A DNA stretch of 64,000 bases from an uncultured Candidatus Saccharibacteria bacterium (lineage in GTDB: Bacteria; Patescibacteriota; WWE3; UBA101185; UBA10185): contig CAZEBU010000001.1 in the NCBI GenBank assembly GCA_964510435.1, positions 52,627 through 116,626 on the forward strand, read 5' to 3'. The notes beneath the pieces were generated by a model. That model was not told the origin of the DNA. It saw nothing but the letters and a program-made list of their open reading frames with translations, and ran no database searches. This document shows positions 15,686-44,062 of this stretch, piece by piece. Position 1 is the first letter of the stretch; each line of letters begins with the position of its first letter. Made by a program: the position numbers and the translations under genes.

Positions 15686-15730
15686 GGCAAGTGATTATAT
15701 CTCGCTTTGCTCGATGTAATCGGCAATTAA

Positions 15731-26864: not shown

Positions 26865-26915
26865 AGCTAAAGAATTTTTTGATTTTAAGCAATTAGTATA
26901 AAATATGTATATGTT

Positions 26916-26980
26916 TCGGGGTGTTTAACTCGCTTCGCTCGTTAGCGATCGTCGCTGACGCTCCGATCTAGTGCACAGTA
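26916..26980 (+). promoter_or_regulatory. conserved ~65-nt 5' leader/upstream element of tRNA-Pro; a paralogous copy lies at 50105-50170
   Basis: About 88% identity between the two copies, which is higher than between the two tRNAs themselves. Both copies begin with TCGGGGTGT, the same bases that start the tRNA. Confidence 0.5.
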
Positions 26981-27000
26981 CATATCTTTATATTATCGTC

Positions 27001-27077
27001 GGGGTGTGGCGCAGTTGGCTAGCGCGCACGCATGGGGTGCGTGAGGTCGCGGGTTCGAGTCCCGCCACCCCGACCAT
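27001..27077 (+). tRNA. tRNA-Pro (anticodon GGG), CCA encoded
   Basis: Hand-folded cloverleaf: acceptor CGGGGTG/CACCCCG; D-stem GCGC/GCGC; anticodon stem CACGC/GCGTG with loop AUGGGGU; T-arm GCGGG-TTCGAGT-CCCGC. Confidence 0.85.
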
Positions 27078-27200
27078 TTAAAAAACCAGTCCTCAAATAC
27101 TTTATTATTCGGTGTTATACCAACTAATACTCCTGGTTCGATAGTTTCCAGTTTTGCATTAACCATTTCGCTATTTCCTTTAAATGCTATGAACGGTTTT
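27078..27200. repeat. conserved tRNA-Pro 3' flank (pseudo-ORF remnant on the minus strand); a paralogous copy lies at 50265-50390
   Basis: The minus-strand translations are ...NAKLETIEPGVLVGITPNNKVFEDW and ...NAKLKSVKPFELVTIGKNIGAFKY. Neither copy has an intact ORF. Confidence 0.45.
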
Positions 27201-27374
27201 TGCAGGTCAATATCAAGTATTCCGCCTTTTATAGTAAAGTTCGAGCCTAAACTTCTTAATATCAACGTTTTATCCTCGGCTGTTACTAGTTAATATATAG
27301 CACCTATAGTAATTATTGACATCGTAAGCTGCTTAGGTTATCATTCAGACATAGACAGAGAGCGTGGGTTCGCC

Positions 27375-28184
27375 CTAGTTGGCGCTTGTACCCAAAGCAC
27401 TGTCTATTTTCTTTTCTATATTTCCTTTAAACTCTGTAATTTCAAAACTACGTCCATAACCCAACCTATAGCTACCAGTTTCTGCCATTTGCTTAACGCC
27501 CAGCTTTTTCTGAACGTGAGCCATCAACCTATATTTTGCACTTTTCCTACCACCCCTGATAGAAATTAGCCCATATTTCAGTTTAAAGGCGTAGGCAACA
27601 CATCCAATAAGCACATCGACCAATTGAATTTCGCTCACAGCGTGTGATTCGACACGACAAATACCGTATAATGCGTTTCTTCTTGTACTCGCTCTTATTT
27701 TTCGCTTAGTATCTTTTTCGAACGTGTCTGCTTTTGGAGTACTTACATCATCAGCCAACACAACCATATATTCTCCAGCACCTAGGGAACTGGCAATCAA
27801 CTTACCAGCAAACGCGTTATAGGCTTTGTTGTGGTTGCTTTTGAAATATTTTTTTATGTCTAAACCCTGCTTATCGAAAAAAAGGCTATTGAATTTAAGG
27901 TGTGGAGTACTGAAAAATATATCTACCAAACCTTTGTAAAGCGTTAAATTGTCGTCACGGACATTACTAAATTTAAATTCTCCACGAAAATCAGTTTTAT
28001 CCTTGTAACTAACTATTTTCTTATGAAGAGCGGAAGGTTTATGTACATACAATAGTCCCAAACCGAATACCCTATCTTCTTTTGGGGAATGAAGAAGACC
28101 AACTTCATCTAAAAACCCAAAATAGTTGATTTTTTGCTTTGGTCCAGGTTTTGCTGCCATAGTAGGTTCTACTTCGTTTCGCAA
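27375..28184 (-). CDS. DUF3800-family protein
   Basis: The N-terminus has YFGFLDEVG (cf. the DESG motif) and the C-terminus has SEIQLVDVLIGCVAYAF (cf. QLADLIAYA). Confidence 0.45.
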   Translation of the reverse strand: MRNEVEPTMAAKPGPKQKINYFGFLDEVGLLHSPKEDRVFGLGLLYVHKPSALHKKIVSYKDKTDFRGEFKFSNVRDDNLTLYKGLVDIFFSTPHLKFNSLFFDKQGLDIKKYFKSNHNKAYNAFAGKLIASSLGAGEYMVVLADDVSTPKADTFEKDTKRKIRASTRRNALYGICRVESHAVSEIQLVDVLIGCVAYAFKLKYGLISIRGGRKSAKYRLMAHVQKKLGVKQMAETGSYRLGYGRSFEITEFKGNIEKKIDSALGTSAN

Positions 28185-28273
28185 TTATTACAACACAATT
28201 GTACGCAATAATTGTATGTTAATCAAGTGCATCTATTGTTATTTATCAATTTGTAAGGCGAACACACAAAAGA

Positions 28274-28305
28274 GTTACAAACATAGTCTAATATGGTAGA
28301 CCAGG
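28274..28305 (+). repeat. junction repeat, copy 1 (divergent)
   Basis: GTTACAAACATAGTCTAATATGGTAGACCAGG. Confidence 0.4.
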
Positions 28306-28354
28306 CTTTTTGACTGCTCTTACAACAAATTTTATCATCGTGTATAATGAGTCC

Positions 28355-28789
28355 ATGAACGAAATTGGTACTCAAATTAGAGGAGACCACAAAAACCCTT
28401 ATCACCTTTCGGTTGGAGCAGTTGTTACCAACAACAACCTGGTTGTTCTTATAAAAAAAGGTGGCAACTTTTATACATTGCCAAGAGAAACTATTTATTC
28501 CCTGGAAAACGTACACGGGGCTGTGCAAAGAGGTCTGGAAGAAGAAGTGGGGATTAACTCCGAGGTTGTAAAGTTTTTAGGTTCAGTAATTGAACATTTT
28601 AATCGTCCAGACGGTACAAAAGTAGAAAAAACAACTTTATACTTCTTGTGTGAAAAAGCTTCTGATTATAAAGAAGACGAGACGGACGAGGAGGTTATTT
28701 GGGTTGAGAACCAAAAAGCCCTAGAGTTGCTTAAAAAGTGTGGTAATGAGGAATACAATATAGTAGACAGAGCTTTCAATAAGACCTGA
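28355..28789 (+). CDS. NUDIX hydrolase
   Basis: Nudix box GAVQRGLEEEVGI. The start is ATG 28355; the track uses an upstream TTG. Confidence 0.6.
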   Translation: MNEIGTQIRGDHKNPYHLSVGAVVTNNNLVVLIKKGGNFYTLPRETIYSLENVHGAVQRGLEEEVGINSEVVKFLGSVIEHFNRPDGTKVEKTTLYFLCEKASDYKEDETDEEVIWVENQKALELLKKCGNEEYNIVDRAFNKT

Positions 28790-28817
28790 CTGCTACGTTC
28801 CCCGAACTTATCAAAAA

Positions 28818-28847
28818 GTTGCAAACGTCGTTCACTATGGTCGACCA
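28818..28847 (+). repeat. junction repeat, copy 2
   Basis: GTTGCAAACGTCGTTCACTATGGTCGACCA, 29 nt after the NUDIX stop. Confidence 0.6.
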
Positions 28848-28852
28848 GTGGA

Positions 28853-28895
28853 AAAGCGGGTGTTGCCCAAAGGGTAATAGCCGCTTTTTCATTTG
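28853..28895 (+). terminator. rho-independent terminator-like hairpin
   Basis: AAAGCGG-loop-CCGCTTT followed by TTTTCATTTGTT. Confidence 0.5.
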
Positions 28896-28898
28896 TTA

Positions 28899-29001
28899 TG
28901 GCGGGACGAGAATGATTCGCAGCGAGCGGAGGCGAGCGAGAGGGGGTCGACTGGCTCGCCAGCAGGCGAGAACAGGTGACCGAGTCCCGCCACCCCGACC
29001 A
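28899..29001 (+). repeat. tRNA-Pro 3'-half-like element: GGCGGG...(~70-nt insert)...GAGTCCCGCCACCCCGACCA
   Basis: The last 21 nt (28981-29001) are identical to the 3' end of tRNA-Pro(GGG) (T-loop/stem, acceptor and CCA). The 5' GCGGG can pair with CCCGC like a T-stem, with a large insert in place of the T-loop. Confidence 0.55.
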
Positions 29002-29119
29002 GATTGGGCAGCGTTGTAACCACGATGCCTCAAAAACCCTTTAACCGCTTGCAAAAAGACCCCTCATTTTTCCAACATTCGAACCGCTGTTTTGCTTATT
29101 TTGGTCCGGCTAGAAATTC

Positions 29120-29968
29120 CTAATCTATGGAACATACCTGTTCTGCTTCAGTTACAAGTTCCATTACCCTTTTAGAATCAAATGATTTATCTAGCAATAC
29201 CCTCCGGCTTTTTTCTTCTCTAAGATCCCTACATAAAACGATGCCACAGTCTAACAAATCCTTTTTCTCTTGTTGTGTAATACTCTTTAAACACGTTATT
29301 GGATGTAAACCGGAATCATCTATAAGTTTTTGTAACGATGCATCATTTGGATACCCCCAGCCCAACATCTTAACACCGGCACATTCCCCAAATTTTATAG
29401 CATCAGATGTAAACTTAGTGTTTGTGACAACCCATCCTTGATGGAATTTATTCATGTGACCTTCTTTTTTTTCCCACACATCAGCTACGTCCTCGAACCT
29501 AGATTTTATATACATTGGAACCTTTACATCTGTTTTATAACCCTGCCTATTATGATATTTACACTCAATCATAAAATGCTCATTATCCTTCAATGCGACA
29601 ACGTCAACCTCGTGACTAACACACTTCCCTTGCACAATTGCCCCCACCTCCACCTTGTACCCATAATTCTCCAAAATCCTACCGATATATCTTTCAAACG
29701 GGAAACCTGTTGGTCCTAATTGCATAATTGCCTTTTTCAGATTATATCTGGATGTTGTATGAGGTTCATGTTTGTTAAGAAAATCTACTATGATCTCGTG
29801 AATTTCTTTGGTTGATATGTTGTTGTAAAGCTTCGCAAGCACAAATTCTCGGGCCCTCTCCTCAAGACCTCTATTTATCCCAGCATTTCTTATGGACCTA
29901 ATTAGCTTTTCGGCCGAAAAAAGTTGCTGAGAAGAATCATACTTCGTTACATAAATTTTTTCAGTCAT
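29120..29968 (-). CDS. ATP-cone domain fused to an Mrr-like (PD-(D/E)xK) restriction endonuclease domain
   Basis: The N-terminus KIYVTKYDSSQQLFSAEKLIRSI is an ATP-cone. The centre FERYIGRIL...HEVDVVAL...MIECKYH is the Mrr catalytic core. Confidence 0.55.
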   Translation of the reverse strand: MTEKIYVTKYDSSQQLFSAEKLIRSIRNAGINRGLEERAREFVLAKLYNNISTKEIHEIIVDFLNKHEPHTTSRYNLKKAIMQLGPTGFPFERYIGRILENYGYKVEVGAIVQGKCVSHEVDVVALKDNEHFMIECKYHNRQGYKTDVKVPMYIKSRFEDVADVWEKKEGHMNKFHQGWVVTNTKFTSDAIKFGECAGVKMLGWGYPNDASLQKLIDDSGLHPITCLKSITQQEKKDLLDCGIVLCRDLREEKSRRVLLDKSFDSKRVMELVTEAEQVCSID

Positions 29969-32231
29969 TTGAAACTTTAATTAGATTTTTCTCAACTCGT
30001 TTTAGTAGAACGGCATTTGTAGCAACTATTATTGAAGATGCTGACATTAATAATGCCGATATTTCAGGGCGTAACGTAATCCCATAAGCCGGGTATAGAA
30101 TTCCTGCTGCAATAGGTATAGCAAGAACGTTATATACACTTGCCCAAACCAAATTCTGTTTCATTTTTGTGACAGTTGCCTTAGATAACTTAATAGCATT
30201 CAATACATCAAGAGGGTCTGATTTCATTAAGACGATATCTGCGGTCTCAATGGCCACATCAGTTCCAGCGCCAATTGCAATTCCAACGTCTGCCTGGGCT
30301 AGCGCTGGAGCATCATTAACTCCATCACCAACCATTGCGGTAAATTTTCCTTCCGATTGAAGTTGCTTTATATGGTTAGCCTTATCTTCAGGAAGAACTT
30401 CTGCAAAAAACCTTTTGATATTAAGGTCCTTTGCAATATGCTCTGCAGTTTTAAAATTATCTCCCGTAATCATCACAGCTTCTATCCCAAGCTTGTTTAA
30501 CATGGAAATTGTCATTTTAGCACTTTCTTTAACAGGGTCCATAGCAGCAACTACGCCTGCTATTTTTTTATTTATTGCTAACAACATAATTGTTTTACCC
30601 TGTTCCAAAAGATTATTTAGAGGAACCTCAATTTCTTTAAGCTCAACGTTGTTATTTCTCATTAGTTTTGCTGTACCTACTAAGACTTCTTTACCAGCAA
30701 CAGTAGCTACTACGCCATGCCCGGACAAACTCTTAAACTTTGTCACATCATTTGATATCCTGCTCTGTAAATTCCTTCTTTCAACTTCTTCTAAAACTGC
30801 TGTGCTTAGTGGGTGACCTGATTTTTTTTCAGCGGCGGCGTCCAAAAGTAATATTTCTTCTTCAGAAAAATCGTTAACGGCTATTACGTCAGTGATTTTA
30901 GGTTTACCTTGAGTTAACGTTCCAGTTTTGTCCAGTACAATAGCCTGAATCTTAGAGGCCTGCTCCAAAGTTACTGCATCTTTGATTAAAATGTTGTTCT
31001 TAGCTCCAAGACCTGTTCCGACCGCTACTACTGTTGGTGTCGCTAAACCTAGAGCATCTGGACAGGCAATAATAATAGCTGAAATAGCGAATGTTAAAGC
31101 GAAGAGTAGGGGTTGTCCCACGAAAATATACCAAATCGAAAATGTTATAATTCCACTTCCCACGGCTAGTATTACTAAGTAAGCTGCGGCTTTGTCTGCA
31201 ATTCTTTGCCCAGGTGCTTTTGAGTTCTGAGCGGTTTCGACTAACTTCACTATCTGAGCCAGGGCAGTGTCTCCACCAACCTTCATAGCTCTAAACTTTA
31301 TAGACCCGGCTTGGTTTATAGATCCACCTATTACCTTGTCACCTAATTGCTTACTAACGGGAAGTGATTCCCCTGTCACCAAAGATTCATCAATTGAAGT
31401 CTCTCCCTCTATAATCTCCCCATCTACTGGAATCTTGTCTCCCGGTTTTATAAGTACAATGTCCCCTAATATAATTTCGGCGGTATCTATAAGCATTTCC
31501 GAATTGTCTTTAATAACAGTCGCTTTTGGAGGTACCAAATCAAATAAGGCTCTTAATGAGTCGGACGTCCCCCGCCTAGACTTCATTTCCATCCAATGGC
31601 CAAACAAAACAAATGTTACAAGCATTGCAGCAGCTTCATAGAAGGTTTCTTGGCCAAAAAGAGTCAAAGCTATACTAAACAAGTAAGCTGCTAGAACCCC
31701 CGTGGAAATTAACACAGACATATTTAGTTTCTTAGCTTTAAGGGAATTGTAAGCGCCCCTTACAAAAATATTCCCAGTGCCTAAAACTATTGGTGTAGTT
31801 AATAGAAAAAGCAAAACACCTACAGGTATGGGAGACGGTAAAATGAGACCAAACACCTCAGTTGCTAAAGGTGAATATAGGATAACTGGTATAGAGAGAA
31901 TGAAGGAGATAAAAAACCTTCGCTTCATATCCTTTTCCATTTGTTTAGCCATACTGGGATCGGACATAGCAGCCTCGTGGTCCTGATGGCTCATATGCTC
32001 ACTTTTTAGTTTTAGGTCTTCACCATCGGAGTGCTTATACTCATGTCCGTCATATTCATGCTTGCTTTTAAGATTGTACTCATACTGTTTCGCCTCCATA
32101 TCAGATCCGCATGTAACGGTTATTTTTTCTGCTATGCAGCAAAAACAGGAATCTGTGGTTTTTGGATTTTCATGTTCTTTTTTATGGCTCTTCATAATAA
32201 TTATCTCCTCCTTGTACTTATTGTGTACCAA
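29961..32231 (-). CDS. heavy-metal (probably copper) translocating P1B-type ATPase with a His-rich N-terminus
   Basis: DKTGTLT, GDGVNDAP, the TM motif ACPDALGLATP (CPD rather than CPC/CPH), and an N-terminal His-rich stretch. Confidence 0.8.
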   Translation of the reverse strand: MVHNKYKEEIIIMKSHKKEHENPKTTDSCFCCIAEKITVTCGSDMEAKQYEYNLKSKHEYDGHEYKHSDGEDLKLKSEHMSHQDHEAAMSDPSMAKQMEKDMKRRFFISFILSIPVILYSPLATEVFGLILPSPIPVGVLLFLLTTPIVLGTGNIFVRGAYNSLKAKKLNMSVLISTGVLAAYLFSIALTLFGQETFYEAAAMLVTFVLFGHWMEMKSRRGTSDSLRALFDLVPPKATVIKDNSEMLIDTAEIILGDIVLIKPGDKIPVDGEIIEGETSIDESLVTGESLPVSKQLGDKVIGGSINQAGSIKFRAMKVGGDTALAQIVKLVETAQNSKAPGQRIADKAAAYLVILAVGSGIITFSIWYIFVGQPLLFALTFAISAIIIACPDALGLATPTVVAVGTGLGAKNNILIKDAVTLEQASKIQAIVLDKTGTLTQGKPKITDVIAVNDFSEEEILLLDAAAEKKSGHPLSTAVLEEVERRNLQSRISNDVTKFKSLSGHGVVATVAGKEVLVGTAKLMRNNNVELKEIEVPLNNLLEQGKTIMLLAINKKIAGVVAAMDPVKESAKMTISMLNKLGIEAVMITGDNFKTAEHIAKDLNIKRFFAEVLPEDKANHIKQLQSEGKFTAMVGDGVNDAPALAQADVGIAIGAGTDVAIETADIVLMKSDPLDVLNAIKLSKATVTKMKQNLVWASVYNVLAIPIAAGILYPAYGITLRPEISALLMSASSIIVATNAVLLKRVEKNLIKVSND

Positions 32232-32902
32232 TTTAAATGTTCATACAACCCCGACCACAAAAATCCTAGTACAAGGGCGAATAGTAGCTCTTCTAGAGGT
32301 ACTTTGAGTACCATAATCCCCGTCAGTTTTCCTAAATTCCACACCTCCATCGTCCAGTTAGGGAAAAAGAGGTTAAGTGCTACAAAAAAAATAAAATAAA
32401 AAGCAAAGAAAATAATAGAACCTAGAAACATCTTGTACTTGAGATCGGGCCTACAATAGAGTGAAAAAACACCTCCGATGAATAGAGAAGCTATTGTTAC
32501 ATAAATAATATTCCAGCCAGTAAATGTGTAAAGAAGTATAAATGCTAAAGGAGCTGACATGATGATTAGCTTATGGTAACGGTGCCTAAGGTGTTGCTTG
32601 TCTAGCTTGGAAAATTTTAAATATCTGGTCTTTCTAATCACTTCATAAGATACTGTAGCTAGACCGCCAATACTAAATGCGAATATTAGACTTTCTATGT
32701 CAAAGCCAGTTGTTTGAGCCAAATTGAACAAAGATGGCGGCTCCCAATATTCAGGTACAAAAAAAGGCTCTGTCAAACCAAAAAAGGAAGTAAGAACGCT
32801 AACGTATATCATAGCCCTTTTACTATCCTTATTAATCTTCAAGTAAACAAGAACCCAAACGAGCAAAAATATTAAACTACCAATAAGCCAAGTATATTGC
32901 AT
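32201..32902 (-). CDS. lycopene-cyclase-domain (CrtYcd-like) membrane protein
   Basis: Two PxEE motifs, FVPEYW and VPLEELLF, in a 7-TM protein. Confidence 0.45.
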   Translation of the reverse strand: MQYTWLIGSLIFLLVWVLVYLKINKDSKRAMIYVSVLTSFFGLTEPFFVPEYWEPPSLFNLAQTTGFDIESLIFAFSIGGLATVSYEVIRKTRYLKFSKLDKQHLRHRYHKLIIMSAPLAFILLYTFTGWNIIYVTIASLFIGGVFSLYCRPDLKYKMFLGSIIFFAFYFIFFVALNLFFPNWTMEVWNLGKLTGIMVLKVPLEELLFALVLGFLWSGLYEHLNWYTISTRRR

Positions 32903-32906
32903 AATT

Positions 32907-33173
32907 TTATTCTTTTAACTTTAGCAAAGCGTCATCATATTCTCTCTCACCTATTTCCCCCTCCGCAAATCTTCTCTTAAGAATATCAGTAGGATTTTCT
33001 GTATCCGTATCTCTGGATTCTGATTGTTTGCGACCCATCATATAAACGAAATAAACTAGCAGTGCTAAAGCAATTACCCCAAAAAACATCATATACATTA
33101 CTCCGCCAAAACTTGTACTTGGAAGATGGTGAGAGTACAGCTCTGTGTTTGTACTATGCGCTAATTGCTCCAT
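32907..33173 (-). CDS. SHOCT-domain membrane protein
   Basis: C-terminal ILKRRFAEGEIGEREYDDALLKL. Confidence 0.5.
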   Translation of the reverse strand: MEQLAHSTNTELYSHHLPSTSFGGVMYMMFFGVIALALLVYFVYMMGRKQSESRDTDTENPTDILKRRFAEGEIGEREYDDALLKLKE

Positions 33174-33191
33174 GTTCAGTAGTTAAATGGA

Positions 33192-33398
33192 CTAAACTCC
33201 AACATATTTTTGCGGGTCGTCTACAAAATGAATTTTGCAGTGTTCAGAGCAAAAGTGATATTCTTTCCCCTTGTAAATAAAAATAAAATCGGTTTCATTC
33301 GTAAACTCCATACCACAAACTAGATCTAGTAAAACCTTCTCAGCATAAGCAAACTCTTTTGGCCTTTTTAGCTTTTTCATAAAAAAATTACTTCCCAA
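33192..33398 (-). CDS. YHS/TRASH-domain metal-binding protein
   Basis: CGMEF...YHFCSEHC. Confidence 0.55.
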   Translation of the reverse strand: MGSNFFMKKLKRPKEFAYAEKVLLDLVCGMEFTNETDFIFIYKGKEYHFCSEHCKIHFVDDPQKYVGV

Positions 33399-33510
33399 CT
33401 AAAGCCACTTTAATTTTAGACAATAATGAAAAATTACCATTGGCTTCCGCCTTACCGCGTTTGACCTTAACTTTCTTTTTCTTTTTATTACCTCCGCAGC
33501 ATCCTGACAT
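33388..33510 (-). CDS. small Cys-rich basic peptide (MSGCCGGNKKKKKVKVKRGKAEANGNFSLLSKIKVALVGK), not in the ORF track
   Basis: 40 codons inside the copper cluster with an N-terminal CC motif. Its last codons share a few bases with the start of the YHS gene (33398). Confidence 0.2.
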   Translation of the reverse strand: MSGCCGGNKKKKKVKVKRGKAEANGNFSLLSKIKVALVGK

Positions 33511-33763
33511 ATTAATACTCCTTTAAAATTAAATTATTAATTACCTTTTTCATTTTCTATTAGTGTTCGCACCCAACTATACGTAAAACCTGTTATCCAG
33601 GCAGAAAGCGCTAAAGACACGCCTCCAAATAGTAATCCCGAAAAGGTCATATTCCATAACCCCAGTACATCAATGTTAAGACCGTGTAACCACTAACGGG
33701 TGATTTGCTAGTGTGTATTTATTTTTCATAATAATCAATATCTCCAATAACAAAACGTTAAAT

Positions 33764-34180
33764 TTATACTTTTTGATTGAGTTTTGCGATTGCTTTCTCC
33801 AAAGCAGCACTGAGCTTAGTTTCTATAACTCCTGCTATTTCCTTAATTTGTTCATTATCGCTAAACCCCAGCACACTTGTTGGTTTCATAAAACCAACTT
33901 TGACCTCTCCAGAATCCTCAAAAACAACTACGTTGCATGGAAGTAGGGCGCCTATTTCGGGTTCTGAAAGTAGTGCTCTATGTGCAAACTTTGGATTACA
34001 TGCACCAAGAATTATGTATTTTGAGTAATCTATATTGAGCTTATTCTTTATAATTTCCTGCACATTTATTTCTGTGATAATACCAAAATCTTCATTTTTT
34101 AGACTCTCTCTTATTGCCTTTTCCGTCTCTTCAAAACCGGAACCAGAAATTTGTATAACTGTATATGCTGCTTTTGTCAT
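33764..34180 (-). CDS. DUF302-domain protein
   Basis: The ILGACNPKFA...LPCNVVV pattern. Confidence 0.55.
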   Translation of the reverse strand: MTKAAYTVIQISGSGFEETEKAIRESLKNEDFGIITEINVQEIIKNKLNIDYSKYIILGACNPKFAHRALLSEPEIGALLPCNVVVFEDSGEVKVGFMKPTSVLGFSDNEQIKEIAGVIETKLSAALEKAIAKLNQKV

Positions 34181-34181
34181 C

Positions 34182-34454
34182 TTACGAACTCCTTTGCCTT
34201 TTTTTATAAATTTCTATTAATTCTTTTATAGCCTTATCTTTTTGGTTACTAAACTGCTCTGAAACATGAATTTGTAGATGCCTTTCAAGAACCACAACGT
34301 CGACGCTCTTAAGAGAGTTCTGAATTGCATAACTAAGATCCAATACATCAATACAATAAGCCTCCTCGTTGATCATTTTGGCAAGGCCATCCAATTGACC
34401 CTTAATTATATTGATTCTCCTTTCAATATCTTTTTTATTATATTCATCTTCCAT
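34182..34454 (-). CDS. csoR: CsoR/RcnR-family metal-sensing transcriptional repressor
   Basis: RINIIKGQLDGLAKMINEEAYCIDVLDLSYAIQNSLKSV...H, a 90-aa DUF156 fold. Confidence 0.7.
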   Translation of the reverse strand: MEDEYNKKDIERRINIIKGQLDGLAKMINEEAYCIDVLDLSYAIQNSLKSVDVVVLERHLQIHVSEQFSNQKDKAIKELIEIYKKRQRSS

Positions 34455-34465
34455 ATATATACCCT

Positions 34466-34482
34466 ATACCCCCCCGTGGTAT
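34466..34482. promoter_or_regulatory. candidate CsoR operator (ATACC-N7-GGTAT pseudo-palindrome)
   Basis: ATACCCCCCCGTGGTAT sits 12 nt upstream of the csoR start. CsoR operators are GC-rich TACC...GGTA palindromes. Confidence 0.45.
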
Positions 34483-34546
34483 CCGTCAAGAGCTTTTTTA
34501 TTACCATTATTAGAGAGGTTTCCTTATTTATAGCCTGGAGAATGTA

Positions 34547-34574
34547 GTTGTCCGTGACCGCCATGCTCGACCAG
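34547..34574 (+). repeat. junction repeat, copy 3 (divergent 5' half)
   Basis: GTTGTCCGTGACCGCCATGCTCGACCAG. It is followed by a hairpin with a T-run at 34577-34616 and by GGCAGGACGAGAA at 34622-34634. Confidence 0.45.
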
Positions 34575-34812
34575 AAAAAGCTAGATATCACCGCAGGTGG
34601 TAGCTAGCTTTTTTTAGTTGTGGCAGGACGAGAATAATTCGGACTGAACGAATGAAATGAGTGAAGGAGAGGGGCTAATGCTTTCGTAATAGACGCAGAA
34701 AATAATTTCCTAATAATTCAAAAGAATATTTATGATGATGGTCAATTGGACTATGCAAACAAAGCCATTAAAGATTTTGAATCTCAAGGGCTCCTAAACT
34801 AAGTTCATAAAA

Positions 34813-34823
34813 GTTACAAACAT
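34813..34823 (+). repeat. junction repeat half-site (5' half only)
   Basis: AAAAGTTACAAACAT, immediately 3' of the PIN gene. Confidence 0.25.
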
Positions 34824-34831
34824 TCTCCACC

Positions 34832-35281
34832 CTAAATTTTATAGTTAGCACGTATAAATTGCATGAAATCACCTGGGCTTATAACAATAATTCCAAAATC
34901 TCCTTTTATCACATCTAGTTTAAAGTGTTTTAAATTATAAGTAATCAGAAATCTAGCCTTTGTAATTACAGCTCCGGCTAAAACATGACTATCATACATA
35001 TCCAACAAATAACTTCCATATTTTTCTACTAAGGATGCTGGAGAACCGTGCAAATTAGTAATTTCAAATTCCTTATTGAATGACTTGGCTAAAACCTTGT
35101 TTGGTAGACTCAGTCTTTTTGCAACACCTCTAGTTTCTTTTAAAGATAGTTGTGTAGTAAGTTTAGTAACTTTTAGATCGTTGATAATAAAGTGAGCGGC
35201 ACCTTTTCTAGAAAAAAGAGACGAAACTATCACATCTGTATCCGGGAAGATTCTTATATCTTCAAGCTTATTTACTCTCAT
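34832..35281 (-). CDS. PIN-domain (PIN_3-like) toxin component
   Basis: N-terminal DTDVIVSSL and C-terminal D..D.HVLAGAVITKARFLITYNLKHF. Confidence 0.45.
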   Translation of the reverse strand: MRVNKLEDIRIFPDTDVIVSSLFSRKGAAHFIINDLKVTKLTTQLSLKETRGVAKRLSLPNKVLAKSFNKEFEITNLHGSPASLVEKYGSYLLDMYDSHVLAGAVITKARFLITYNLKHFKLDVIKGDFGIIVISPGDFMQFIRANYKI

Positions 35282-35543
35282 AAGCTTTAGACCTAAGTTC
35301 TTTTATAGTCTTTTGTATCTTCTCAATGTTTTTAAGATCCTCCTGCTCAGCTTGATATATATCGTAATCCAAACCTGTAAAGGCAAAATAGATAGACTTG
35401 GCTGGAATCCTATAAACACTGCCAAACCTTTTAGCAATAATTTCACCTCGCCTAATTAAATCGTAAACGGTATTCTTGTTAAGCTGAAGTATTTCTGCTA
35501 CTTCAACGGGGGTATAAGTTTTTGTATATAACATCTTACTCAT
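35268..35543 (-). CDS. excisionase-family helix-turn-helix DNA-binding protein (probable antitoxin of the PIN gene)
   Basis: TPVEVAEILQLNKNTVYDLIRRGEI. It overlaps the PIN gene by 14 nt. Confidence 0.55.
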   Translation of the reverse strand: MSKMLYTKTYTPVEVAEILQLNKNTVYDLIRRGEIIAKRFGSVYRIPAKSIYFAFTGLDYDIYQAEQEDLKNIEKIQKTIKELRSKAYESK

Positions 35544-35618
35544 TATGACCAGACTATACTATACAGTATAGAACTTGTCAATTACGTACTGATTAGGTAG
35601 GCTCGCACTCATCAAATG

Positions 35619-35648
35619 GTTGCAAACGTCGGTTACTATGCTCGACCA
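35619..35648 (+). repeat. junction repeat, copy 4
   Basis: GTTGCAAACGTCGGTTACTATGCTCGACCA. Confidence 0.55.
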
Positions 35649-35695
35649 GAAATCCCTATTGACGTCGAACAAACTCATATATACAATGTATACAC

Positions 35696-35962
35696 ATGTA
35701 CTTTGATTGGGATGGAAAAAAGAGCAAGAAACTCCAATCAATACGCAACATTAGTTTTGAGCAAATACTGGTAGAGATTAATAATGGCAACTTATTAGAC
35801 GTTATTGAGAATCCAAATCAAAAAAAGTATCCCAATCAGTTGATATACATAGTGAGATCGGGAAACTACGTTTATTTAGTTCCTTTTGTGATGGATAAAG
35901 AAAAGATTCTCTTGAAAACAATTTATCCTAGCAGAAAGTTTAAGAGATTATATGAAAAATAA
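35696..35962 (+). CDS. brnT: BrnT-family (DUF497) ribonuclease toxin
   Basis: MYFDWDGKKSKK...ISFEQI...YIVRSGNYVYLVPFV...KTIYPSRKFKRLYEK matches the BrnT pattern. Confidence 0.6.
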   Translation: MYFDWDGKKSKKLQSIRNISFEQILVEINNGNLLDVIENPNQKKYPNQLIYIVRSGNYVYLVPFVMDKEKILLKTIYPSRKFKRLYEK

Positions 35963-36248
35963 TAAAAACATGTATAAACCACTTGACGAATACGAAAAAG
36001 ATCTACAGGAAACCATTGATAAGGTGGATTCTTTTAAAAGACCTAAAAACTATAAGAAGGTTTTAGCGAAAGCATTAATAGCTGCAAACAACACCTCTTC
36101 AAAATCCAAGACTCTTAATATCCGTATTGCTGAAAAGGACTTAATTATGCTTAAAACTAAAGCTGAAAAGGTTGGTATGCCTTATCATACGCTTATTAAT
36201 ACTGTTTTACACCAGTATGCTAAGGGAGAATTAAAGGTCGATATTTAA
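35952..36248 (+). CDS. brnA: BrnA antitoxin (RHH)
   Basis: KTLNIRIAEKDLIMLKTKAEKVGMPYHTLINTVLHQYAKGELKV. It overlaps brnT by 11 nt. Confidence 0.6.
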   Translation: MKNNKNMYKPLDEYEKDLQETIDKVDSFKRPKNYKKVLAKALIAANNTSSKSKTLNIRIAEKDLIMLKTKAEKVGMPYHTLINTVLHQYAKGELKVDI

Positions 36249-36253
36249 AAAAA

Positions 36254-36283
36254 GTTCAAAACATCGTTCCTTATAGTCGACCA
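36254..36283 (+). repeat. junction repeat, copy 5
   Basis: GTTCAAAACATCGTTCCTTATAGTCGACCA, starting 6 nt after the brnA stop. Confidence 0.6.
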
Positions 36284-36394
36284 TGAAATTATGTAATCAC
36301 ATTTATGTGGTTAATTAACAAACTTTATAGCGGGTGATGGGTTTAGAAACCGTACTAGGCTCAAAGGGGGCATCCTGAGCGGAAATGCTGAAGA

Positions 36395-36712
36395 TCAAAC
36401 AACTTTAACTCCATTTTTCTTTATCTCAGTCACAAGCGGGTTGTACTTGTTATTAAAATCTTCAACCAAAAACGGGTGAGGCTCAATTAAATCACTTATA
36501 TCACGTCTAAGATGCATAAGTCTTACTCTCTCTCCATGCAAATCGTCGCTAAAGTCGGCTGAGACTATGCCTACATCCAAATCACTCCACTTGCTATTAG
36601 TACCCTTTACTCTTGATCCAAAAGCATACATTTCCTGCACGTTTATACCATTACTTTCAAGGACAGCTCTATATTCATTAAGAATGTCTAAATATTCTTG
36701 TGTTAAACTCAT
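36395..36712 (-). CDS. minimal nucleotidyltransferase (MNT) antitoxin
   Basis: FGSRVKGTNSKWSDLDVGIV, the GS...DxD motif. Confidence 0.65.
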   Translation of the reverse strand: MSLTQEYLDILNEYRAVLESNGINVQEMYAFGSRVKGTNSKWSDLDVGIVSADFSDDLHGERVRLMHLRRDISDLIEPHPFLVEDFNNKYNPLVTEIKKNGVKVV

Positions 36713-37092
36713 AGTGACCCTTCAACCCATGTATACAAATCTATGGAAACCTTTACCCATTTTTCAGCGTATTCTTTTGTAGCTTTTTTATAAAAACTTA
36801 GTTTGTAGTCATCATAACGTGTATCTAAGTTGAAGGTAGTTATTTCGTTAAGTCTTTCTTCAGTTTTGTTAGTGACTCCTAAATCAGCTTCTTTTGCCAA
36901 TCGTTTTAAATCGTGCGTGTATGGGATTTCCTTTCCCTGACTAACTAATAGCCCCTTTAATAGTTTTTCAAGAGATAGTTGCCAAAAAAACAAACACCAA
37001 TGATAGTAACCAAGGTCAAACATACCTTGTGCAGCATTTTTACTCTCTTCTGAGCCATCAATCCAATATTTTAAAGCTTCTTCCCTTTTCAT
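36709..37092 (-). CDS. HEPN-domain protein (partner of the MNT)
   Basis: LSLEKLLKGLLVSQGKEIPYTHDLKRL, with a 4-nt overlap with the MNT gene. Confidence 0.6.
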   Translation of the reverse strand: MKREEALKYWIDGSEESKNAAQGMFDLGYYHWCLFFWQLSLEKLLKGLLVSQGKEIPYTHDLKRLAKEADLGVTNKTEERLNEITTFNLDTRYDDYKLSFYKKATKEYAEKWVKVSIDLYTWVEGSL

Positions 37093-37180
37093 ATAGGCAT
37101 TATACTAGATTGAAAGTTGCAAACATAATAGTCCGCTATAGACAACACAAAATTATACCTGAAGGGCATGACACGAAGTA

Positions 37181-37210
37181 GTGGCAAACGTCGTTTACTA
37201 TGGTCGACCA
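37181..37210 (+). repeat. junction repeat, copy 6
   Basis: GTGGCAAACGTCGTTTACTATGGTCGACCA. Confidence 0.55.
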
Positions 37211-37233
37211 TGGAAGTTTGTTAATATTAGGAT

Positions 37234-37968
37234 GTGAACAAAAAAGGTTTTTCTGCTATTTTAGTTTTAACGCTGGTAGTTGTTACCGTAACTGTTTTTG
37301 TTCTTTACACAATACACTCTTCAAAGAAATCGACAGCACAGTTTTTTTCAACTCAAAAGCTTGCATACAGTAGTAATGGTATGGCCAGAGTGTACGATTT
37401 TTCGTCAAATAATCAGCTAGATCTGAAGATATTGTCAGTTACAAGCTTTTTGTGGTCCCATAATGGAAAAGAACTTGCATTAATGGTTCAAGGGGAATAC
37501 GATCCCGGCAAACTTACGTTCATACCTATTAAAAGAGTTTATGCAACAACTGCAGGATTTAATTACATGGTCTATTTAGTGGATCTGGAAACTGGGATCA
37601 CAACCTTGCTATTGGATAAAGTTTTTGGAAAAGTTCGGTGGTCAAAAGACACTACAGGACTATATTTTACAGAACAGTACCGTCAAGGAAGGCCGCTTAT
37701 CCTGGGAAATCAATCAGGCTTGCCACCAGACCAAGAGGAATATTTTTTCATATCTTTGGATGGAGAAAAGAGGAAAACAACAAAAAAAGAATTTGACGAA
37801 ACTTCTTACTTTAATACAGCAAGTTCACTAAACTCCCCCGATGGGAAACTCATCATAGAACTGTCTGATAACATTGTGGGGGATAAACAAATGAAAATAA
37901 AAGACCAAAACAACAATATAGTTGTTGAGCTTACAGGGCAACTCCCTGTATGGGCACCTATCCTGTAA
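37234..37968 (+). CDS. membrane-anchored protein with PD40/TolB-like beta-propeller repeats
   Basis: An N-terminal TM helix and repeated W/SxDGKxL motifs. Confidence 0.35.
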   Translation: MNKKGFSAILVLTLVVVTVTVFVLYTIHSSKKSTAQFFSTQKLAYSSNGMARVYDFSSNNQLDLKILSVTSFLWSHNGKELALMVQGEYDPGKLTFIPIKRVYATTAGFNYMVYLVDLETGITTLLLDKVFGKVRWSKDTTGLYFTEQYRQGRPLILGNQSGLPPDQEEYFFISLDGEKRKTTKKEFDETSYFNTASSLNSPDGKLIIELSDNIVGDKQMKIKDQNNNIVVELTGQLPVWAPIL

Positions 37969-37992
37969 AACTTCGTTCCGTATAGTCGAGCA
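37965..37992 (+). repeat. junction repeat, copy 7 (overlaps the stop codon of the preceding gene)
   Basis: GTAAAACTTCGTTCCGTATAGTCGAGCA. Confidence 0.5.
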
Positions 37993-37996
37993 GATT

Positions 37997-39418
37997 TTAA
38001 ATAATATGCTTTAACCTATTCAGACTATAAGCATACCCTAATTCGTTGTTGTTAAAATTGCTGGTAGAAAGAACTCTTAAACCAATTTGAAGTTGACAGA
38101 TCCTATGGCGTTCCCAATAATTCGATACATTTAATCCCCTATCTTTTATGTAACTAAGATATTTTTTGCTAAAATCGTCATCTTTGTGCCAAAAGTCATA
38201 CCACGCCGGATCATACACAAAATCACCAATCATCGAATTTGCCCAATCTAGTACAGTAACCTGCTTTGTTTCCGGATTATAAATTACATCAGCATAACCA
38301 TAATCACTGTGGACTAAATATGCATCTTTTAACTGGGTGTATTTTAACAATATCTTCATCTCGGTTAATGCAGACTTAAATATATTTTTGTGCTCTACAC
38401 CATCTTTGAGTAGTTGTTTATATTTTTTCTCATGCAAAAATTTCAATAAAAAATCTTCCCAATTTTGATAGAGAGCGCTTCTTTTCTTATTCCAAGACCC
38501 AAAACCCCCGAACTTATCTATTCGCGCAGTGTGTATTTTATATAAGGTCTGTATAACATAGGGTAAGGCTGTGGAATACTCATCTTTATCCAAATCATAT
38601 AAAACACGTCCCAAAACTCTTTCTGATATGGCGTAATAAACTTTTTTACTATATCTACCTAAATTAGTAACCTCGGGAATAGAAAAATATTCAGAGAAAT
38701 CCTCATAAGCAAGTTTATCTTTGTAGAGATTTTCATAATTTTTGCTGAACCTAACAACATACTCTTTTTCTTTATGCACGAATGTGAAAGTGTTGGTTGT
38801 AGAACCATACTTTATTTCTTCAATATTATTTGCTTCTATGTTCAGTTCTTTTCTGAGAAAATTCATTGCGTCACTTTTCCCAACTGAAGGTTTATTGCCA
38901 ACGGTATTAGCATAGGTTTCAATGTGCGGCAGAATTCCTACATAACACAATAAATAACTATCCTTAGAAATTGCACCTGTTTCTATGCCAACCAAGAACG
39001 CTATGATCCTATGTAGTCCGTCTACGAGCTGCCTATTATTCTTTTCATATGACTCATTGAGAACTAAAGCCGGATTAACTCTTCTGCCAATACTAAAAGA
39101 TTCAACGATATTTTCTATTTTGACTACAAAATTAAGGTCAACATTCTTAATTTCTTTATAATTATTACGATAGTTTGCAGCCATTTCAGCTGCCGAAAAT
39201 TGTGAATAGTTTTTTGTCAGGTAGTAAGATGTTGTGTTTGGAGTTTTTTTAGGATCAGACCAAAGAAGGGTACTAACTAAATTGTTGTAGAAAAACCTTT
39301 TTGAACCTAACCAACTATACTTAATAATCATATCGGATACATCCCAACCTCTTTTTTCTTTCCCAGCTTCCACCTTTTCGAAAACATCCAAAATCACACT
39401 ACGTGGGACATACTCCAT
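37997..39418 (-). CDS. two-domain protein: N-terminal ParB/Srx-like domain fused to an APH/choline-kinase-like phosphotransferase domain
   Basis: The N-terminal part has QLVDGLHRIIAFL (cf. the ParB DGHHR motif). The C-terminal part has VHSDYGYADVIY...VLDWANS, the kinase catalytic loop and DFG-equivalent. Confidence 0.45.
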   Translation of the reverse strand: MEYVPRSVILDVFEKVEAGKEKRGWDVSDMIIKYSWLGSKRFFYNNLVSTLLWSDPKKTPNTTSYYLTKNYSQFSAAEMAANYRNNYKEIKNVDLNFVVKIENIVESFSIGRRVNPALVLNESYEKNNRQLVDGLHRIIAFLVGIETGAISKDSYLLCYVGILPHIETYANTVGNKPSVGKSDAMNFLRKELNIEANNIEEIKYGSTTNTFTFVHKEKEYVVRFSKNYENLYKDKLAYEDFSEYFSIPEVTNLGRYSKKVYYAISERVLGRVLYDLDKDEYSTALPYVIQTLYKIHTARIDKFGGFGSWNKKRSALYQNWEDFLLKFLHEKKYKQLLKDGVEHKNIFKSALTEMKILLKYTQLKDAYLVHSDYGYADVIYNPETKQVTVLDWANSMIGDFVYDPAWYDFWHKDDDFSKKYLSYIKDRGLNVSNYWERHRICQLQIGLRVLSTSNFNNNELGYAYSLNRLKHII

Positions 39419-39453
39419 GGCTACATACTAACAGTCCTTGTATCAACAGAAAA

Positions 39454-39492
39454 GTTCAAAACATCGTTCCGTCGAGTCGGCCACCCCGACCA
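39454..39492 (+). repeat. junction repeat copy 8 fused to a tRNA-Pro 3'-end-like sequence
   Basis: GTTCAAAACATCGTTCC followed by GTCGAGTCGGCCACCCCGACCA. The final 20 nt differ by 1-2 nt from the 3' ends of both tRNA-Pro genes. Confidence 0.55.
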
Positions 39493-39507
39493 TGATAAAA
39501 TCAACTC

Positions 39508-39840
39508 ATGATAATTACCCTCGACAGAAAAATAACACCCGAGGAGTTTGAGAAAGCAAGGGAAGTTTACAATGACTATATAAAAACCGTCATCGATGTG
39601 GAAAGAAATATACTAGTAGTCGGCGGCGAGTACCATATAGATTGTGAAGAAGTTTTGCTTAAAACGGGAAGTAAACTTGAAAACCTTTACGGTGGGGGTT
39701 ATAAGGTCAGCACAAAGGAGGTTGAGTATATGGCAATGAGTAATTACAAACCTGCTTTAGGAAAAACAACCTATGAAATAATGGACAAAGAAATTCGTGA
39801 CAAATTATATAAGTTAACAAAGAAGTACTTGGAAATATGA
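39508..39840 (+). CDS. hypothetical protein
   Basis: ORF in a cassette. Confidence 0.3.
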   Translation: MIITLDRKITPEEFEKAREVYNDYIKTVIDVERNILVVGGEYHIDCEEVLLKTGSKLENLYGGGYKVSTKEVEYMAMSNYKPALGKTTYEIMDKEIRDKLYKLTKKYLEI

Positions 39841-40115
39841 ACAGAGATAAACAATTCATTATAAACTCAATAAAGATGGATCTTCATAGGGTCGTAACAG
39901 CCGCGGGTGATATAACAAAAAAAGCGCCCACAGAATCGATAAGAACATTCATGGAACATGCAGATAAAGACTTTGATAAAACCGAATTAGATGAAAGGGA
40001 AAAAAGTATCAGACAGGAACTAAAAGCGCTTGCAAATAATCTGGAGGCCTTGTCAGATCCACACACCAGGCTGAGATGGACCGAGGATGTCATGACTGCC
40101 CGGTGCAGGTTGTGA
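39837..40115 (+). CDS. hypothetical protein
   Basis: ORF with a 4-nt overlap with the upstream gene. Confidence 0.3.
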   Translation: MNRDKQFIINSIKMDLHRVVTAAGDITKKAPTESIRTFMEHADKDFDKTELDEREKSIRQELKALANNLEALSDPHTRLRWTEDVMTARCRL

Positions 40116-40121
40116 TAAAGC

Positions 40122-40147
40122 GCAAAACTTCGTTCCGTATAGTTAAC
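40122..40147 (+). repeat. junction repeat, copy 9 (3' half degenerate)
   Basis: GCAAAACTTCGTTCCGTATAGTTAAC. Confidence 0.45.
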
Positions 40148-40191
40148 TGTAATCTTTGGTCGCTGTCACAACAAAAATAACTGAGTTAAAA

Positions 40192-40965
40192 CTAAAAATC
40201 GTACAATACTTTCAATCTCCTTAGTTCAATAATTCCTTTATCAAAGTAGGTATTCCAATCAGTTGCTATCTGGGGCTCATAAGAAAATTTCAAACCCCCG
40301 TTTGTGATATTAATCTCAGAAAGCGTTACACCGCTGGGTTTGGAGTCTAAATTAGACTGCGCCAGTAAAAGTGTACTATCTTTTTCAACAATCAAAGCCA
40401 TGTGTGTATACTCACCTTTTAAGTTAATCAATACTAAATCTAGAGGTTGTATTTCATCCTGGGCTATCTCTGTTGAAGCGTGACCTGCAAAAACAAATAC
40501 ACCGGCATGACTAACCTGGTGTTTTTCGTCATGCGCCCAGGCCAGGGAGTTGATAAACTCCTCTAATCGCTCTAATTTTTCGAAAGCAAAGTGCAGAACA
40601 TGAAATACAAATCCGGAACAGTCAACTCCCAATCCATATAGTTTCATAAACTCCCTAATACCTTCGGGGTTTGCGTTCTCAAGATTAAACTCTAGTTGTT
40701 TTGAAATCTCAATTACTGCCGATTCAAGTTCCTCGGGGCTGCCCTTTCCTCTATACCAACCGAAAGGAGCTTCCTTGTTTTTATACATCTCGTGAACTTT
40801 CTTAGCGTGTTCCTCCGGAACTTGTGCTTTTTCCATCAAACCGTCCACAACATACAGCCCAACATTATTTATATAGTATGGTGTTCTCACCTTCTTTTTG
40901 TAAACTCGGAGATTAAGATAGTCGTCGATTCTATCAAGTGCGTGCTCATTTAATTTGCTAAGCAT
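40192..40965 (-). CDS. NlpC/P60-like papain-fold cysteine peptidase domain protein
   Basis: A GVDCSGFVFHVLH Cys motif and downstream His residues. Confidence 0.35.
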   Translation of the reverse strand: MLSKLNEHALDRIDDYLNLRVYKKKVRTPYYINNVGLYVVDGLMEKAQVPEEHAKKVHEMYKNKEAPFGWYRGKGSPEELESAVIEISKQLEFNLENANPEGIREFMKLYGLGVDCSGFVFHVLHFAFEKLERLEEFINSLAWAHDEKHQVSHAGVFVFAGHASTEIAQDEIQPLDLVLINLKGEYTHMALIVEKDSTLLLAQSNLDSKPSGVTLSEINITNGGLKFSYEPQIATDWNTYFDKGIIELRRLKVLYDF

Positions 40966-41019
40966 AGCAGTATTATAACGTGTTTATGTATTGAGTTTTT
41001 CAGATGGTAGAATTACCCT

Positions 41020-41994: not shown

Positions 41995-42025
41995 CACAAA
42001 GCAGATACACACGATCTGGAAACCT

Positions 42026-42058
42026 ACATGTTAGACATAGTGTCTAACACATGTTAGA
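42026..42058. promoter_or_regulatory. operator-like repeat upstream of phd-vapC
   Basis: ACATGTTAGA-CATAGTGTCTA-ACATGTTAGA: direct repeats of ACATGTTAGA flanking an inverted segment, 9 nt upstream of the antitoxin start. Confidence 0.4.
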
Positions 42059-42066
42059 ATCGCCTC

Positions 42067-42360
42067 ATGCAAAAATTAAAGTCAATAAACATAAGAGATT
42101 TTCAACATAATTTATCCATGTACCTAGACTTAGTTAAATTGAAGCCTTTGGTAATAACAAGAAATGGTGTGGAAGAAGCCGTTTTTATCGATCCTGCTTC
42201 GTATGAATACAAGAAAAAGTCAAAAAAATCAGTTAGAAAGTCTCAAGATATGATGGATTCTGCATTTATTGGTATGCACAAAAATAGAAAAGGCTGGAAA
42301 ACAAAAACTAACGCAGCGATTGCAGGTAAGTTGAGGGGCAATGCTTGGAGTGGTAACTAA
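42067..42360 (+). CDS. Phd/YefM-type antitoxin
   Basis: INIRDFQHNLSMYLDLV...PLVITRNGVEEAVFIDPASYE. Confidence 0.55.
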   Translation: MQKLKSINIRDFQHNLSMYLDLVKLKPLVITRNGVEEAVFIDPASYEYKKKSKKSVRKSQDMMDSAFIGMHKNRKGWKTKTNAAIAGKLRGNAWSGN

Positions 42361-42730: not shown

Positions 42731-42741
42731 GTGTAAAAAAA

Positions 42742-43179: not shown

Positions 43180-43236
43180 CTATTGTACTACGCCAACCTT
43201 GAATTGATAACATAATCCTAGTACACTTCTTAAACA

Positions 43237-44049: not shown

Positions 44050-44062
44050 TTTCTCAATCCCC

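Follow-up and report, generated by a model that had tools for sequence, protein, structure and literature searches.

Large serine recombinase relics downstream and a shared leader hairpin upstream of two tRNA-Pro genes in a probable candidate phyla radiation bacterium

Results

Two tRNA-Pro genes with related flanks

We analysed the 64-kb stretch of bacterial DNA shown above at its full length (hereafter the window), focusing on the sequences that flank its two tRNA genes. Both were identified by ARAGORN and Rfam as tRNA-Pro genes, and no further tRNA gene was found in the window. A first-pass annotation had noted that the two genes share similar 5' leaders and 3' flanks, and had read this similarity as conservation. 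We refer to the gene with anticodon GGG as locus A and to the gene with anticodon CGG as locus B:

27000-27076, plus strand: tRNA-Pro(GGG), locus A
50189-50264, plus strand: tRNA-Pro(CGG), locus B

The nearest named homologues belong to candidate division WWE3, and the host is probably a member of the candidate phyla radiation. For comparison we used contigs carrying the same tRNA beside the same neighbour gene, namely L003, L005 and L007 for locus B and L024 and L025 for locus A, from organisms whose neighbour proteins are 56-72% identical to those of the window. The two window tRNAs are identical at 62 of 77 positions (80.5%), slightly above the value of about 75% first proposed and clearly below the identity of their leaders. 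The tRNA-Pro(CGG) of L003 has the same sequence as that of the window, and those of L005 and L007 differ from it at four T-stem positions.

Downstream flanks derive from large serine recombinase genes

Immediately downstream of the two tRNA genes we found remnants of large serine recombinase (LSR) genes:

27077-27289, minus strand: LSR relic A, the C-terminal 71 codons, identified by phmmer; open, continuing into the antisense of the tRNA (open reading frame, ORF, at 26993-27265)
50267-50431, minus strand: LSR relic B, with two in-frame stops, identified by translation and by BLASTP against protein P0019

The DNA of the two 3' flanks is 58.5% identical without gaps over 130 nucleotides (nt) at a 2-nt offset (local z 4.8), a score that none of 500 shuffles reached. 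The signal is stronger at the peptide level, where the minus-strand translations reach an alignment score of 97, shuffles averaging 22.5 (z 18), and the relics share about 33% amino-acid identity. Homology of the flanks, as claimed in the first-pass annotation, was thus confirmed. The accompanying description, of related minus-strand peptides lacking an intact ORF, stands as well: relic B has two stops, and the frame of relic A is open but runs into the antisense tRNA. Only some numbers of the first-pass annotation needed small corrections.

We ran the 71-residue peptide of relic A with phmmer against 1.84 billion representative proteins and obtained 15 homologues. Among them were P0019 (209 residues; 8e-20, 65% identity), P0020 (1e-13) and P0028 (1.5e-4), the last being a 568-residue LSR with Resolvase, Recombinase and Zn_ribbon_recom domains. 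P0019 aligns in turn to residues 342-521 of P0028 (E 1e-28, 180 residues), and the relics match the region of P0028 that follows the zinc ribbon, at residues of about 470-520. Relic B matches P0019 by BLASTP without gaps over 55 residues (E 2e-8, 38% identity). When P0019 was itself used as the query of a homologue search, it returned only itself. The window ORF at 26993-27265 has no Pfam match, the Resolvase, Recombinase and zinc ribbon domains are not present in it, and no intact recombinase was found in the window islands described below. As only the C-terminal tail is left in the window, recombinase activity is impossible.

Other contigs reveal how the reading frame of these genes meets the tRNA. 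In L026, the intact gene of the 568-residue LSR (5001-6707) overlaps all of a tRNA-Ile(TAT) gene (6624-6701) in the antisense direction, so that its last 26 codons are the antisense of the whole tRNA and the frame crosses the tRNA that serves as attachment (att) site. Similarly, several short relatives of the relic end as antisense translations of tRNA 3' ends. In L027, which is from another organism, the same relic lies 3' of a tRNA-Pro(GGG) gene, and the relics of other organisms show 59-65% identity to relic A. Judged by these sequence comparisons, the 3' flanks are fossil C-terminal ends, of roughly 55-70 codons, of LSR integrase genes. This agrees with the earlier suggestion that they are relics of a gene that once ended at the tRNA; the comparison of the flank peptide with integrase C-termini, proposed at the same time, matched it to the LSR tail. 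The two window relics are old and stem from separate events and different family members. On this account, LSR-bearing mobile elements inserted at the terminal bases of the tRNA, where CGACCA is the core, with the integrase gene adjoining the junction on the opposite strand and its frame running into the tRNA.

A palindromic block is shared by both leaders

Upstream of the tRNA genes, the shared sequence consists of a hairpin and a short tail:

26916-26967, plus strand: leader hairpin copy A (repeat D5; predicted fold; covariance-model score 94 bits)
50105-50156, plus strand: leader hairpin copy B (repeat D5; predicted fold; covariance-model score 100 bits)
26968-26981, plus strand: tail of the shared block at locus A, CTAGTGCACAGTAC, aligned to 50157-50172 and overlapping the native locus A leader
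50157-50172, plus strand: tail of the shared block at locus B, ATCTAATGCTCAGTAG, aligned to tail A
26982-26999, plus strand: native locus-specific leader of tRNA-Pro(GGG), 33% identical to the locus B spacer

The hairpin is a GC-rich imperfect palindrome of 52 nt that ends 32 nt before both tRNAs and is followed by the tail of 14-16 nt. Its two copies are identical at 49 of 52 positions (94.2%) and the whole block, 26916-26981 against 50105-50172, at 60 of 68 (88.2%), which reproduces the leader identity of about 88% given in the first-pass annotation. The edges of the block are sharp, since identity falls to 33% in the 16-18 nt before the tRNA and to 57% in the 40 nt upstream. A 26-mer from the leader core occurs twice in the window, once in each leader, with no occurrence expected by chance. 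The leaders were also said to begin with the tRNA's own first bases, and indeed the first 8 nt of the tRNA recur at -83 at both loci. The resulting direct repeat of the tRNA 5' end is perfect over 9 nt at locus A and 8 nt at locus B, with 75 nt between the repeats in both cases, and TCGGGGTGT is found three times in the window (26916, 26999 and 50105) against 0.18 expected.

Copy A is predicted to fold at -22.1 kcal/mol (z -3.3), with none of 200 shuffles as good, and copy B at -20.7 kcal/mol (z -3.3), whereas folds of the minus strand are weaker (-15.1 and -17.0 kcal/mol for A and B, respectively). The outer stem, UCGGGGUGU(U)/(G)ACGCUCCGA, comprises 9-10 pairs of which two are G-U, and the inner stem is UCGCU-CGUU-AGCGA. 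All three substitutions between the copies are central and leave the outer stem unaffected. The 5' arm of the hairpin equals the first 8-9 nt of the tRNA, and its 3' arm resembles a wobble-containing version of the tRNA 3' acceptor strand together with a discriminator-like A.

Such ends, resembling the 5' and 3' acceptor strands followed by a discriminator-like A, could be what is left of a tandemly duplicated tRNA-Pro gene that has lost its interior. We regard this pseudo-tRNA origin as very unlikely, because the leaders (26916-26981 and 50105-50172) have no match to the Rfam tRNA model RF00005 at E values up to 5, the interior is, by eye, unlike tRNA arms, tandem tRNA-Pro genes occur in no relative examined, and copying to the second locus would still be required. 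Rfam 15 has no family that either leader matches with a score at or close to the gathering threshold. Both leader regions are free of terminator-like sites, and the hairpin is not an intrinsic terminator because it has no T run.

Within the window, the best non-self local score of the leader is 26-27, a value reached by 15-33 of 60 shuffles. A short similarity to the leader core is seen in GTGATTATATCTCGCTTTGCTCG at 15690-15713, and an exact 13-mer, CGAGCGAAGCGAG, is shared on the opposite strand between the leader core and 55899-55911; neither exceeds the shuffled controls. Homology of the leader to the GC-rich junction at 55872-55939 by way of this 13-mer was considered and rejected as not significant.

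The hairpin is absent from relatives and was probably copied between loci

If the leader were a conserved processing or promoter element, as the first-pass annotation had suggested, it should be recognisable at orthologous genes. It is absent from all five orthologous loci that we compared. In L003, L005 and L007, the interval from the CarS-like gene to tRNA-Pro(CGG) measures 83-95 bp and contains no hairpin; in L024 and L025, tRNA-Pro(GGG) begins 43 bp after the RDD gene, likewise with no hairpin between them. At six other tRNA loci, no copy of the tRNA's first 7-8 nt was found within 200 nt upstream. Exact-word scans with leader core words gave a single chance match, in Leifsonia, among 596 Gb of genomes, only the organism's own contigs and chance matches in the JGI metagenomes, and no match in IMG/VR. 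A covariance model of the leader, run on the window with filters off, recovered only the two copies there, and beyond the window only the organism's own contigs. Short contigs of the organism occur in NCBI assembly GCA_006243215.1 (VAPC) and as contig VAPA010704132.1. Being absent from the orthologous loci of relatives, from the three public collections and from Rfam, the hairpin is not a conserved processing signal. The high identity of the leaders reflects a recent, sharply bounded copy and not deep conservation.

The hairpin-free relatives also give an indication of how the block arose. The 32 nt before tRNA A align to the native leader of L024 (z 4.3, none of 500 shuffles as good), non-orthologous pairs being not significant, and the CTAGTGC of the shared tail stands at the same place in L024. 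By sequence, locus A fits an insertion of the hairpin into a native leader at about -32. We propose that the 52-nt palindrome was inserted into the native leader of locus A in this lineage only, and that the shared block, including some 14 nt of native locus A leader, would then have been copied recently to locus B. The direction of copying is probably from A to B, because the shared tail is native to locus A. A recent copy of this kind would leave the leaders more alike than the anciently diverged tRNAs.

The perfect direct repeats of 9 nt (A) and 8 nt (B), exactly 75 nt apart at both loci, bring to mind a different insertion, namely that of a miniature transposable element of 75 nt into the tRNA 5' end. 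The target, 8-9 bp of TCGGGGTGT, would have been duplicated, and the downstream copy would restore the tRNA. This appears improbable. At locus A, the final 32 nt of the postulated element have their orthologue in L024's native leader (z 4.3), its right-hand 16-18 nt are unrelated between the copies (33%), the 75-nt interval lacks terminal inverted repeats, and no further copies were found in the window, the compared loci or public collections. We rejected a 75-nt insert inside the tRNA 5' end, attractive at first, on the orthology of leader A with L024 and on the differing right ends.

Promoter-like surroundings and possible function of the hairpin

A consensus scan detected one candidate promoter near the leaders:

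50068-50097, plus strand: promoter-like TTGATG-18-TATACT (consensus scan only)

This candidate ends 7 nt before hairpin B. Upstream of hairpin A only weak boxes are present, for which L024 has homologous counterparts. Two further sequences were observed between the CarS-like gene and locus B. One, at 50010-50095, consists of two exact tandem copies of a 34-bp unit, ACTTCGTAATATATCTGACTTCGTTTGATGTATT, and a partial third copy reaching the candidate promoter. Between this repeat and the CarS-like gene lies a GC-rich segment (49938-50009) with three small hairpins (CACCG-CGUU-CGGUG, GUUCC-UUC-GGAAC and GUCAC-UGC-GUGAC) whose fold is no better than that of shuffles (z -0.9). Both the tandem repeat and the GC-rich segment are absent from relatives.

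Promoter-like boxes stand shortly before the hairpin. Both pre-tRNA-Pro transcripts therefore probably carry it as a stem-loop at their 5' end or close to it, and ribonuclease P (RNase P) would probably remove it together with the leader. In minimum-energy folds of the whole precursors (26910-27085 and 50099-50273), the leader sequence UCGGGGUG is predicted, on thermodynamic grounds, to pair with the tRNA 3' acceptor strand and to displace the tRNA's own 5' strand. The 3' arm of the hairpin may thus matter by occupying that extra leader strand. The hairpin would also stop its extra acceptor-like 3' strand from competing with the tRNA's own fold.

We considered whether the hairpin is a functional RNA of this lineage, either a minihelix that resembles the acceptor stem and tunes maturation or stability of tRNA-Pro, or a released decoy for enzymes or toxins that act on acceptor ends. 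Several observations are compatible with this idea: the stable fold is stronger on the tRNA-sense strand, on which both outer non-Watson-Crick pairs are G-U; the 5' arm has the same 8-9 nt with which the tRNA begins; the -83 register is kept at both loci despite an indel; the three substitutions are central and spare the outer stem; locus B has a promoter-like site shortly before the hairpin; and toxin systems of the PIN and HEPN/nucleotidyltransferase kinds are encoded in the islands. However, the hairpin is absent from all relatives examined, its two near-identical copies offer no covariation, it has no Rfam match, the 94% identity is equally well explained by recent copying, and the decoy idea is speculation. 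A function is therefore possible but unlikely. More specific, and considerably less probable still, is a version in which RNase P cuts a working acceptor-stem mimic from the pre-tRNA-Pro leader, which then controls folding and maturation through competition for the 3' acceptor strand or acts as a decoy for island HEPN-type toxins; here the -83 register and the strand-specific G-U pairs would result from selection and not from recent copying.

Island boundaries, attachment sites and a one-directional array of att arms

The LSR relics open onto long islands, which span about 27077-47000 and 50265-58170. The distance between the two tRNA-Pro genes, 23 kb in the window, is 4.7 kb in L003, where conserved genes lie on both sides, and in L024 a thymidylate kinase gene follows tRNA-Pro(GGG) after 180 bp. 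Because relatives with the same neighbour genes lack the downstream DNA, the window DNA at these positions is an island. The following sites and repeats were recognised:

27071-27076, plus strand: att core CGACCA at locus A (attL), deduced from the junctions in L027 and L028
50259-50264, plus strand: att core CGACCA at locus B, the last bases of tRNA-Pro(CGG)
28981-29001, plus strand: 21-nt exact repeat of the tRNA-Pro(GGG) 3' end (27056-27076), CGAGTCCCGCCACCCCGACCA (repeat D4), at the distal boundary of the first island segment
28803-28848, plus strand: reference copy of repeat D1, ...GTTGCAAACGTCGTTCACTATGGTCGACCA, a right-end att arm
starting at 28259, about 34545 (by eye), 35604, 36239, 37166, 39439, 53687, 55784 and 56590, plus strand: other D1 copies, from a repeat search unless noted

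A further 13 nt of the tRNA-Pro(GGG) end recur at 39480-39492. The 21-nt repeat and the island-free relatives bear out the earlier view that elements insert at these loci.

Repeat D1 measures 30-46 nt and is present in nine to ten copies, all on the plus strand and only in the islands after both tRNA-Pro genes. Its copies bound island units that measure about 0.5 kb or more, and the shortest units hold one or two genes; NUDIX genes, HEPN/nucleotidyltransferase genes and the gene of a BrnA/CopG-type antitoxin, preceded by a small ORF, are found in such units. The role of D1 became apparent from other organisms. In L027, a single copy (3212-3241) lies 2 kb past the tRNA. This D1 copy with CGACCA directly adjoins a homologue of the native flank that L024, which has no island, carries 3' of its tRNA. 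As D1 here abuts a native tRNA flank, it represents the right-end arm of the element, with CGACCA as the shared core. In L028 (5588-5650), and also in L029-L032, a D1-like arm, AAAAGTTG..., is followed by CCCGACCA and then by the integrase-relic arm, with no tRNA. By its sequence, the L028 junction is attP-like and lies inside a candidate division WWE3-type chromosome; a NUDIX gene sits beside it, as in the window and in L027. The att pieces that we reconstructed from these comparisons are the D1 arm, the core CGACCA, the P' arm and a 12-bp palindrome, ATGGTCGACCAT, and the reconstructed attP reads ...TATGGTCGACCATTTAAAAAACC.... The D1 arm, the attP form and the recombinase were not found in viral contigs.

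These reconstructions bear on a further proposal of the first-pass annotation, that the leader is an extended att target, and more broadly on the possibility that the leader palindrome is a DNA site of a recombinase, whether an att site (extended or secondary) or the attP-like site of a different serine integrase. Recombinase relics do adjoin both tRNAs, and the palindrome has 10-bp outer inverted repeats 32 bp apart and a total length of about 52 bp, a size and arm spacing that we take to resemble those of the phiC31 and Bxb1 attP sites. Nevertheless, integration takes place at the tRNA 3' end, where the core CGACCA is located, and the reconstructed arms, the core and ATGGTCGACCAT are unlike the leader; fuzzy searches of the leaders for D1 (up to 8 mismatches) and P' (up to 3) gave no match. 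Where the dyad departs from perfect symmetry, it does so as expected of RNA, with G-U pairs, and L027 carries an island with no hairpin in the 41 nt available upstream of its tRNA. A recombinase site thus seems most improbable, the extended att target is not borne out, and the leader as att site of the resident serine recombinase was rejected for want of any likeness to the reconstructed arms.

The islands carry genes for an Mrr-type nuclease with ATP-cone, NUDIX and PIN proteins, a HEPN/nucleotidyltransferase pair, a BrnA/CopG-type antitoxin, a DUF6602 protein and a DUF3800 protein (a weak match below the Pfam cut-off). This cargo is rich in toxin-antitoxin and defence families (27375-28184, 29120-29968, 34832-35281, 36395-37092, 52302-52850 and 56273-56584). 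After three of the D1 copies (28849-29001, 34576-34641 and 55830-55939), a terminator-like hairpin is followed by the motif TGGCRGGACGAGAAT. In two of these cases a GC-rich hairpin comes next, with a tRNA-Pro-like 3' fragment as its 3' arm: GGCGGGAC...GTCCCGCC at 28899-28992 (-47.6 kcal/mol, z -3.5) and GGTGGGAGGAC...GTCCGGCCACC at 55874-55932 (z -2.2).

The D1 arrangement looks like a fossil cassette-like array built at the tRNA end, and we call it fossil because the window contains no intact recombinase gene. Although it falls outside the finding on leader and flank, this one-directional array of att arms at tRNA ends is the most interesting material in the window.

Discussion

The 5' leader and the 3' flank have two unrelated histories that meet at each tRNA-Pro gene. 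We put the probability of the joint account, integrase relics on the 3' side and a recently copied leader hairpin on the 5' side, at about 0.6. A number of points weigh against it. The locus B spacer gave no significant match that would mark it as native (z 0.7-0.8), and the differing 16-18 nt between block and tRNA exclude a simple gene-conversion tract from the tRNA. The -83 register is the same at both loci despite a 2-nt indel, which fits a selected spacing or a fixed-length insert as well as chance. The relatives are distant (56-72% protein identity), and the age of the insertion is thus poorly bounded. L027 has no hairpin in the 41 nt available upstream of its tRNA, a short stretch. Two near-identical copies are too few for a covariation test, and the consensus scan found no plus-strand promoter upstream of hairpin A.

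The downstream half of the finding belongs to a familiar class. As in other genomic islands and prophages at tRNA 3' ends with a decayed integrase, the tRNA 3' end is precisely where the island starts, 21 nt of that end recur at the far boundary (28981-29001), the integrase relic is the first feature after the tRNA, and the DNA is absent from relatives and carries toxin-antitoxin, restriction-type and NUDIX genes. Integrases at tRNA sites are usually of the tyrosine type. In contrast, the enzyme here is an LSR whose frame enters or crosses the tRNA in antisense, and the core common to both sites (CGACCA) measures only about 6-7 nt. The 3' flank is thus a standard tRNA-linked island with a decayed integrase, and the variation lies in an LSR with its frame running into the tRNA. 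With LSRs of the phiC31 and Bxb1 type it shares the Resolvase, Recombinase and zinc ribbon domains of P0028 and a reconstructed attP with a palindromic core, but the window keeps only the C-terminal tail. Similarly, the D1 array recalls tandem site-specific accretion and integron cassette arrays in that one-way repeats of a site arm divide units of one or two genes beside a fixed docking site. The likeness to integron arrays is superficial, as the arm comes from an element with a serine recombinase and docking takes place at the end of a tRNA.

The leader hairpin is less easily placed. Like repetitive extragenic palindromic (REP) sequences and miniature inverted-repeat transposable elements (MITEs), it is a short GC-rich imperfect palindrome in AT-rich intergenic DNA, present in more than one copy and lineage-specific. 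It differs from them in that two copies were found in 64 kb, at the same distance from and in the same orientation to paralogous tRNAs, with no terminal inverted repeats beyond the hairpin and no associated transposase seen. With 5'-terminal stem-loops and pre-tRNA leaders removed by RNase P it shares a stable hairpin predicted near the transcript 5' end and upstream of the RNase P site, but what its arms reproduce is the acceptor stem of the tRNA that follows. Overall, the hairpin belongs to no described family tested: it has features of both palindromic repeats and structured leaders and, in the 64 kb covered, the defining properties of neither.

As it stands, the hairpin is a lineage-specific orphan repeat; if functional, it would offer a rare example of a pre-tRNA leader imitating the acceptor stem of the very tRNA that it precedes. 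It also carries a caution, since high identity between paralogous flanks can reflect recent copying and not constraint. On the other side of the gene, the DNA that appeared conserved after the tRNA is a fossil integrase tail. Mobile elements are poorly described in uncultured bacteria of this kind, and the relics document serine-recombinase elements docking at tRNA ends in a probable candidate phyla radiation bacterium.

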